Shown here: positions 24,033 to 24,327 of the stretch, in pieces | How positions within the stretch are numbered: position 1 is the first letter of the stretch | Layout: each line of letters begins with the position of its first letter | From: an uncultured Planctomycetota bacterium | GTDB taxonomy: Bacteria > Planctomycetota > PLA2 > JAEUHO01 | Direction: 5' to 3' | Length of the DNA: 64,000 nt | NCBI GenBank assembly: GCA_963772585.1 | Contig: CAVYXV010000004.1 | Span: 275,375 to 339,374, forward strand | Notes under the pieces: generated by a model | Told to the model about the DNA's origin: nothing | What the model saw: only the letters and a program-made list of their open reading frames with translations | Databases searched by the model: none | Translations under genes and position numbers: made by a program

Positions 24033-24327
24033 CCACGAACGGACGTTGCATCGCGCGGCCCTCGTGTCCGGGGCCCGGAGGACTCCAAGGAGGCGAGTCC
24101 GGCGGGCGACAGGGATCCGGTATGGCGAATCGGTCGTACGCATCTCGCGCCCGATGCCGGCGTTGCTCGTCGTCGGCGACCCTACGGGGTCGCCTCTTCC
24201 TCGCGCCTTGGCCTCGCGCCCGAGCTACGCACCAGGACACCCCGTGGAAGGGAAACGAGACCCGCATCGCCCCGTCGCTCCTTGACGGTCCACGACGTCG
24301 GGTTGTCCCGCCGCGCGCTTCGCGGGG
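24033..24327 (+). repeat. dispersed structured intergenic repeat, copy A (full length, about 295 bp)
   Basis: Starts ccacgaacggacgttgcatcgcgcggccctcgtgtccgggg and ends gacggtccacgacgtcgggttgtcccgccgcgcgcttcgcgggg. About 87% identical over its full length to 46255-46548. Contains a perfect hairpin GGCGACCC-tac-GGGTCGCC (24175-24194). Ends 9 nt from the chaN stop. Confidence 0.7.

Follow-up and report, generated by a model that had tools for sequence, protein, structure and literature searches.

ERIC sequences are 127-bp imperfect palindromes, and elements of the IS5 group generate a 4-bp YTAR duplication. A generic MITE measures 70 to 300 bp, carries terminal inverted repeats (TIRs) of 15 to 30 bp and has no coding capacity (PMC3733652). 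Elements of the IS630 family insert at TA, which is duplicated in the process (PMC2170065), and have a preference for TA within CTAG (PMC2170065, citing Tenzen & Ohtsubo 1991). REPs consist of a 20- to 40-nt palindromic unit headed by either GTAG or CGTC; those with a GTAG head are located downstream of genes and have termini that can provide an adjoining ORF with its TAG stop codon (PMC3733652).

The repeat family described here was examined in a 64-kb stretch of DNA (64,000 nucleotides, termed the window) with a GC content of 72.7%. In its anatomy, this family resembles the MITEs derived from IS630/Tc1-mariner elements (Correia/NEMIS of Neisseria, RUP of pneumococci and Nezha of cyanobacteria), which are also small, non-coding and dispersed, with inverted repeats of ~20 bp and TA flanks, and which likewise occupy intergenic sites near gene ends and form internal-deletion subfamilies. 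The present element is longer (~320 nt versus ~100 to 160 nt in Correia/NEMIS, RUP and Nezha) and its host belongs to a high-GC planctomycete-like lineage. The targets of IS630 and of the IS5 group both fit the CTAG found at the two borders of one copy and the other borders, which look like decayed CTAG, whereas those elements bear a transposase and this family does not. GTAG REPs and REPINs are similar in being located downstream of genes, in the provision of a TAG stop codon by a terminus and in having alternating units, as seen here in one related genome, but differ in that our family has a CTAG or CCAG head, units that are not self-palindromic, a several-fold greater length and no visible RAYT. 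ERIC is also an intergenic repeat with size variants due to internal insertions and deletions, but the halves of the present element are not significantly complementary beyond their ends, the taxon is another one and there is no relation in sequence.

Genes of the window were fixed by codon-position GC profiles. Relatives of the helicase encoded at 51579-54266 exhibited 67 to 81% identity and were labelled 'MAG: Planctomycetota bacterium', while those of the adenine deaminase at 27452-29164 were MAG proteins with 73 to 79% identity. The host is planctomycete-like, with a high GC content, and is not an actinomycete; an origin from Streptomyces was rejected. Several features of the window outside the repeats were also recorded. 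A 95-nt 'tRNA-Phe' called by ARAGORN at 18403-18497 on the minus strand had no Rfam tRNA match, lies inside a plus-strand coding signal (17494-19335) and is probably a false positive. The codon-position GC signal was weak or absent over 21630-23380, ~1.7 kb that precede a tandem array described below, and the ORFs at 21592-23040 (plus strand) and 22022-23206 (minus strand) had no Pfam match. At 5045-5206, in the 3′-terminal part of an ORF with a CDP-alcohol phosphatidyltransferase domain, a run of CGACGA-type 9-nt repeats encodes an acidic tail rich in aspartate.

A first, sequence-only reading of this DNA had picked out two collinear copies of a repeat, at 24033-24327 and 46255-46548, with an identity of ~87% and a 1-nt difference in length. 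These positions were right: 252 of 293 aligned bases were the same (86%), and the difference in length was the net result of three 1-nt indels. The start and end motifs and the hairpins quoted for these copies were also seen in both of them. Homology extended beyond the proposed bounds, by ~13 nt on the left and 11 to 17 nt on the right, and the added parts are the TIRs. The match between copies A and B was far above chance (nhmmer, E = 2.5e-51), and A matched D, at 51404-51562 on the minus strand, with an E value of 1e-20 and B matched C, in two pieces at ~29193-29301, with E values down to 1.4e-6. Two shorter derivatives had been proposed and both exist, but with other extents: that placed at 51413-51548 is on the minus strand and consists of the 5′ half only (51404-51559), while that placed at 29193-29287 is an internal deletion which really extends over 29179-29316. 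A sensitive search with either full-length copy detected exactly four members in the window, with all other matches at noise level. A further copy and a 42-nt remnant (B′) were found in a related genome, L012 (ERZ25039600), so that six members were seen. The copies, which range in size from 138 to 324 nt, are as follows.

24020 to 24338, plus strand: copy A, full-length, 319 nt (nhmmer and blastn; family HMM match at 24016-24345, E = 1e-97)
29179 to 29316, plus strand: copy C, internal-deletion derivative in which the two ends, ~40 nt (5′) and ~95 nt (3′), are fused (nhmmer and four-way alignment)
46242 to 46565, plus strand: copy B, full-length, 324 nt (nhmmer, blastn and family HMM)
about 51404 to 51559, minus strand: copy D, 5′ half only, ~155 nt, inverted (nhmmer and four-way alignment)
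~8281 to 8529 of L012, minus strand: copy E, 249 nt (nhmmer, E = 2.5e-6 to A)

The family HMM retrieved every long copy. Copies A and B differ by 41 substitutions (16 transitions and 25 transversions), which are clustered, and share 30 consecutive nucleotides without a difference close to the 3′ end. A relationship to the template and variable repeats of a diversity-generating retroelement was rejected, as substitutions were of all types and were not exclusive to adenine sites. Flanking sequences were unrelated at four to six loci, with similarity ending sharply at the inverted ends, and orientation relative to the nearest gene varied, copy A being antisense to the adjacent gene and copy B sense. 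The short ORFs lying over A and B had been judged not to be conserved coding sequence, in agreement with the absence of a codon-position GC signal and of protein homologues in any frame; a protein query made from the concatenated six-frame translation detected no copies mis-called as genes. BLAST searches of plasmids with A and with E gave no match, nor did a scan of viral sequences with the L012 end motif. Scans of genome, metagenome and viral contig collections with an exact 5′ motif produced only chance matches without further similarity. The proposal of an undescribed dispersed non-coding repeat held up, there being no Rfam match and no match by motif scan or plasmid BLAST in public collections; the family is apparently undescribed, though the kind of element is ordinary.

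All four window copies lie beside gene ends, with the following neighbours.

Copy A: tRNA-Met gene at 23853-23929 (minus strand) and a ChaN-like gene at 24336-25412 (minus strand), whose stop codon faces A
Copy C: adenine deaminase gene with its stop at 29164 (plus strand) and a membrane-protein ORF with its stop at 29366 (minus strand)
Copy B: gene for a 130-amino-acid protein (plus strand) with its stop at 46232 and an RNase_H_2/TPR gene at 46637-47749 (minus strand) with its stop at 46637
Copy D: starts 19 nt past the helicase stop at 51579-51581 (minus strand) and ends at the stop of a tricorn-like protease gene at 51407-51409 (plus strand)

A location between convergent gene ends, as had been claimed for the family, applies to B, C and D but not to A, which lies between the minus-strand tRNA-Met gene and the ChaN-like stop. 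The convergent setting of B became clear only once the long plus-strand ORF at 46583-51409 (1,608 amino acids) had been identified as a chimera. Over ~500 codons at its start this ORF runs antisense to the RNase_H_2/TPR gene (46637-47749, minus strand), and its Pfam domains begin only at residue ~705; the true start of the tricorn-like protease is the ATG at 48063, which is associated with a signal peptide (gene 48063-51409, plus strand). Gene callers could, hence, report a false N-terminal extension of ~500 codons for this protease. Genes for a transposase, an integrase or a reverse transcriptase are absent from the 64-kb window. The ORF at 29366-30235 beside copy C was considered as a transposase candidate and rejected, as it encodes a multi-pass membrane protein without a Pfam match.

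The ends of the copies and the features adjoining them are listed below.

24020 to 24039, plus strand: 5′ TIR of copy A, CAGCCTTCACTCCCCACGAA, with 16 of 20 positions matching the reverse complement of 24319-24338
24319 to 24338, minus strand: 3′ TIR of copy A, reading TAGCCTGCATTCCCCGCGAA on the minus strand
46229 to 46232, plus strand: CTAG within which the 130-amino-acid gene has its TAG stop, 9 nt to the left of copy B
46242 to 46261, plus strand: 5′ terminal repeat of copy B, CAGCCCGCACGACCCACGAA, with a degenerate 3′ counterpart (~46536-46565)

The ends of copy A, with 16 of 20 positions complementary and 19 of 24 when flanks were included, had a local alignment score above those of 99.7% of random segment pairs (P about 0.003). 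Copy E had an inverted repeat of 20 out of 21 positions, which was not equalled among 3,000 random segment pairs. End-to-end complementarity was not significant for B or for C when each was assessed alone, these ends being degenerate. Across all copies, 3′ ends taken as their reverse complements aligned with one another and with the 5′ ends. The terminal repeat of the window type reads CAGCCYKCAY-NNCCC-RCGAA, and that of the L012 type CTAGCCTGGAYGATTCATGAA. The two derivatives C and B′ have retained both ends, as expected if transposition needs the ends. Complementarity did not extend to the whole element: in a comparison of left and right halves with genomic segments, z ranged from −0.8 to 2.0, and a long palindrome was discarded as a description of the element.

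The borders of copy E are CTAG-CCTGGATGATTCATGAA at the 5′ end and TTCATGAATCGTCCAGG-CTAG at the 3′ end, such that E is flanked on both sides by C-TA-G. The 3′ tip of copy A lies within a CTAG at 24336-24339, which holds the TAG stop of the ChaN-like gene. Of 11 ends, three had CTAG as the border tetranucleotide (both ends of E and the 3′ end of A), five had CCAG, and GCAG, CTTG and CTGA were each observed once. As TA and CTAG are palindromic, a target duplication is inseparable from the tip of the inverted repeat at these borders.

Syntenic loci were taken from related MAGs by means of the flanking proteins, giving ~168 kb of relatives' DNA in total. These relatives have ~80% protein identity, a distance that precludes a base-exact comparison of empty and filled sites. 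At site A, the spacer between the tRNA-Met gene and the ChaN-like gene is 406 nt in the window versus 119 nt in L005, 85 nt in L008 and 39 nt in L016. For site B, the 404-nt spacer of the window compares with overlapping genes in L010 and L013 and with a spacer of 65 nt, including a 42-nt inverted-repeat remnant, in L012. The distance from the adenine deaminase stop to the Pribosyltran gene (site C) is 18 to 34 nt in L005 and L016, with ~1 kb more in the window due to copy C and an extra ORF. Except for the remnant at site B of L012, no copies were found at the window's element sites in the relatives' loci.

Copy E is located at another locus, between the genes for a Peptidase_M24 protein and a tRNA synthetase. 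It is collinear with A and B, with ~75 nt missing from the left part. The spacer at this site is 357 nt in L012 versus 94 nt in L010, 73 nt in L011 and 83 nt in L013, and the window has ~45 nt there. For each of sites A, B and E, one genome has a filled site and between two and four further genomes have an empty one. In the filled site of L012, the TAG stop of the M24 gene lies inside the CTAG of the element border. The nearest genome with an empty site, L013, has an M24 gene ending in ...GGC-TAG-GCC, with the stop again inside a CTAG, and in more distant genomes the stop of this gene is TGA.

Remnant B′ of L012 is reduced to its two ends, left (CAGCCTGGACGTCCCGAAGGG) and right (TTCATGGGGCATCCAGGCTG), and is preceded by the same GCCGGC flank as copy B of the window. 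The shared occupancy of site B could be due either to an old common insertion or to a hot spot. Another observation from L012 was that a third end-like unit (CCTGGAYGGCCCATGRG), in the opposite orientation, directly follows each element 3′ end, at 8264-8301 and 13228-13265, producing a palindrome of ~40 nt with CTAG or CTGA at its centre. A simple MITE would not be expected to show this arrangement, which is reminiscent of BIMEs. The window and the fetched loci contained no autonomous parent with matching ends; the only IS seen in the relatives, an ISL3 element of L011, was excluded as a parent as its ends are unrelated.

The same comparisons showed other differences around these genes. In the window, 23379-23927 is occupied by three tandem copies of a 183-bp unit, the first two being 100% identical. 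Each unit comprises the 3′ ~33 nt of tRNA-Met together with the hairpin downstream of it; the last unit alone runs on into the intact tRNA gene (23853-23929, minus strand). L005, L008 and L016 have one tRNA-Met without this array, which looks as though integration or duplication had recurred at an attachment site in the tRNA. The ~1 kb between the adenine deaminase and Pribosyltran genes (29165-30218) contains, in addition to copy C, a 289-amino-acid multi-pass membrane ORF without a Pfam match (29366-30235, minus strand). The tricorn-like protease gene (48063-51409, plus strand) sits between the helicase and RNase_H_2/TPR genes, in the interval 47750-51578, while the helicase and RNase_H_2 genes are directly adjacent and co-directional in four relatives (L010, L012, L013 and L014). 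Copy D is, thus, at a synteny breakpoint, exactly at one edge of the protease-bearing segment. The missing 3′ half of D was sought at the other edge (47750-48062), where no element remnant was detected.

CTAG is scarce in this genome. The window has only five occurrences, where dinucleotide shuffles lead to an expectation of 65 ± 7; TTAA, CTAA and TTAG were each absent from the window, and TA dinucleotides reached 42% of the frequency expected from mononucleotides. Real genes have their stop codons in four of the five CTAGs, and two of these five sites coincide with or adjoin an element border; among the stop-codon CTAGs, one is the 3′ tip of copy A, with the ChaN-like stop, and another is the stop of the 130-amino-acid gene at 9 nt from copy B. 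TAG was the stop codon at six of seven gene ends beside elements versus six of 25 elsewhere in the window. Borders of the CCAG type would be explained by a decay of CTAG, as is expected in a genome that removes this tetranucleotide.

The sequence-only reading had favoured a structured RNA, on the basis that differences between A and B were concentrated in loops while stems were kept. This pattern was evident for one hairpin, H1, where A and B differ in the loop only; across the elements, only one of four fold and strand tests of substitutions against stems was significant. The significant test was of the changes in B against the plus-strand minimum free energy (MFE) fold of A, in which 9 pairs were broken versus 18.5 expected; the reciprocal test (changes in A on the fold of B) and both minus-strand tests were null. 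Clustering of the A/B differences weakens the null model of these tests. The MFEs of A and B on both strands did not differ significantly from those of dinucleotide shuffles (z = −0.21, −1.56, +0.47 and −0.14). Consensus folds of two sequences look clean but are circular, and addition of a third sequence resulted in positive, i.e., unfavourable, covariation terms and many broken pairs. Comparison with Rfam, as had been suggested, produced no family match, only tRNA-Met passing the gathering threshold in the window, and relaxed Rfam scans over A and B gave only chance-level matches (E ≥ 0.18). A scan for promoter- and terminator-like sites detected none. With folding no better than that of shuffled sequences, unfavourable covariation and copies in either orientation, the structured-RNA interpretation of the family was not supported.

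Hairpin H1 has the general form GGCGACCC-N4-GGGTCGCC in A and B, with an 8-bp stem.

24175 to 24194, no strand assigned: hairpin H1 of copy A, GGCGACCC-TACG-GGGTCGCC
46397 to 46416, no strand assigned: hairpin H1 of copy B, GGCGACCC-CAAG-GGGTCGCC

Copy E has TCGATGC-TTTG-GCATCGA at the same alignment position, such that seven of eight pairs are kept and three are changed on both sides. Consensus folds of A/B, A/B/D, A/B/C and A/B/E backed H1 only, with the low power of sets of three to five sequences, and one internal hairpin may be under selection. Other internal blocks are common to the window and L012 (GAATCGCGCGG, CCGGCGTTGCTC, ACACCCCGTG and CGCGCGCTTC). H1 and these blocks could be transposase-binding sites or, alternatively, features tolerated or used by the host.

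These findings indicate that the copies probably represent a non-autonomous DNA transposon, a MITE with a full length of ~320 bp, TIRs of ~20 bp and no coding capacity. Inverted ends, dispersed copies, deletion derivatives that retain the ends and presence or absence at orthologous sites were all observed directly and, together with the small size and non-coding nature, are features by which a MITE is recognised. A match to an IS or MITE with TIRs and target duplications had been named at the outset as one outcome that would overturn the RNA interpretation, and most of it was found, namely TIRs, the CTAG/TA borders of E and empty sites; no named IS or MITE was matched. Its mobilisation would depend on a transposase acting in trans, presumably a DDE enzyme whose gene lies in another part of the genome, and integration would be at the TA of CTAG. 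The target is probably CTAG, used in an IS630-like or IS5-like manner; the duplication would be TA in the IS630/Tc1-mariner style or the 4-bp CTAG in the IS5 style, and both models fit the borders. In a genome where CTAG survives almost only where a TAG stop follows a C, insertions would be steered to gene ends, and the terminal TAG of the element could end up as the stop codon of a neighbouring gene. After insertion, most CTAG borders would decay to CCAG or similar tetranucleotides. The location at gene ends could then be attributed to a TA/CTAG target surviving mainly at stop codons, combined with the loss by selection of insertions that land within genes. The 86% identity of A and B and the degenerate ends of B and C suggest that the window copies are old. 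Points that count against a MITE are the lack of a parent IS in the window and the fetched loci, the small number of members seen (six), a target duplication inseparable from the palindromic repeat tip, the non-significance of the B and C ends when taken alone and the third, opposed end-like units of L012.

Some of the same observations could be produced by a REP-, REPIN- or BIME-like family, in which short alternating end units are spread by a REP-associated tyrosine (HUH) transposase and the long interior is a variable spacer. End units of L012 do occur in triplets with alternating orientation, a 42-nt pair of units stands alone at the B-equivalent site of that genome, the position is downstream of genes and the tip can furnish a TAG stop, as in GTAG REPs (PMC3733652). 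We consider this origin distinctly unlikely, however, as the units are not themselves palindromes of 20 to 40 nt, their heads are CTAG or CCAG rather than the GTAG or CGTC of the two REP superfamilies (PMC3733652), full-length copies of 250 to 325 nt with conserved internal blocks are far larger than REPINs, and neither the window nor the ~168 kb of relatives' loci contains a RAYT gene. Neutral leftovers of segmental duplication or recombination, without mobility or function, would account for the position of D at a rearrangement breakpoint and for copies that are few and partly degenerate. Such debris is hardly credible as a source of the family given the sharp loss of similarity at the inverted ends, beyond which the flanks of four to six loci are unrelated, the related copy at another locus of another genome and the retention of both ends by the deletion derivatives.

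A functional role as the primary property, with the copies as duplicates of a structured RNA or 3′-UTR element that serves as a terminator, a stabiliser or an sRNA, draws on the maintenance of H1 through three compensatory changes between lineages, the conservation of internal blocks between the window and L012 and the avoidance of pairs in the plus-strand fold of A by changes in B (9 broken versus 18.5 expected). It is very unlikely in the light of MFE values that were not significant on either strand, unfavourable covariation, null results in the reciprocal and minus-strand stem tests and the lack of an Rfam match or of promoter- or terminator-like sites; moreover, A is antisense and B sense to the neighbouring genes, D is half a copy, and inverted ends and empty sites are not predicted by a functional RNA. 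A related proposal is that the family goes beyond a passive MITE, homing on TAG stops by way of CTAG in a genome that avoids this tetranucleotide elsewhere, and that the host has kept it as a module of gene ends, where it would act between convergent genes as a bidirectional terminator, an insulator or an RNA-stability element. This idea arises from the compensatory changes in H1, the retention of blocks between genomes at ~80% protein identity and the double occupancy of one convergent spacer (copy B and the L012 remnant), and we regard it as speculative and rather unlikely.

Read as a MITE, the family adds a new one, from a poorly sampled lineage, to a well-known kind of element and does not amount to a new class of system. 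Its presence accounts for oversized spacers at gene ends in this organism, and the element supplies or overlaps at least one, and perhaps two, stop codons. For annotation, the short ORFs over the elements should not be taken for genes. The family may also serve as a worked example of how an element with an inferred TA/CTAG target would be funnelled to stop codons in a GC-rich, CTAG-depleted genome. Furthermore, the family HMM and the end motifs provide a handle for finding the transposase in this uncultured lineage near Planctomycetota MAGs.
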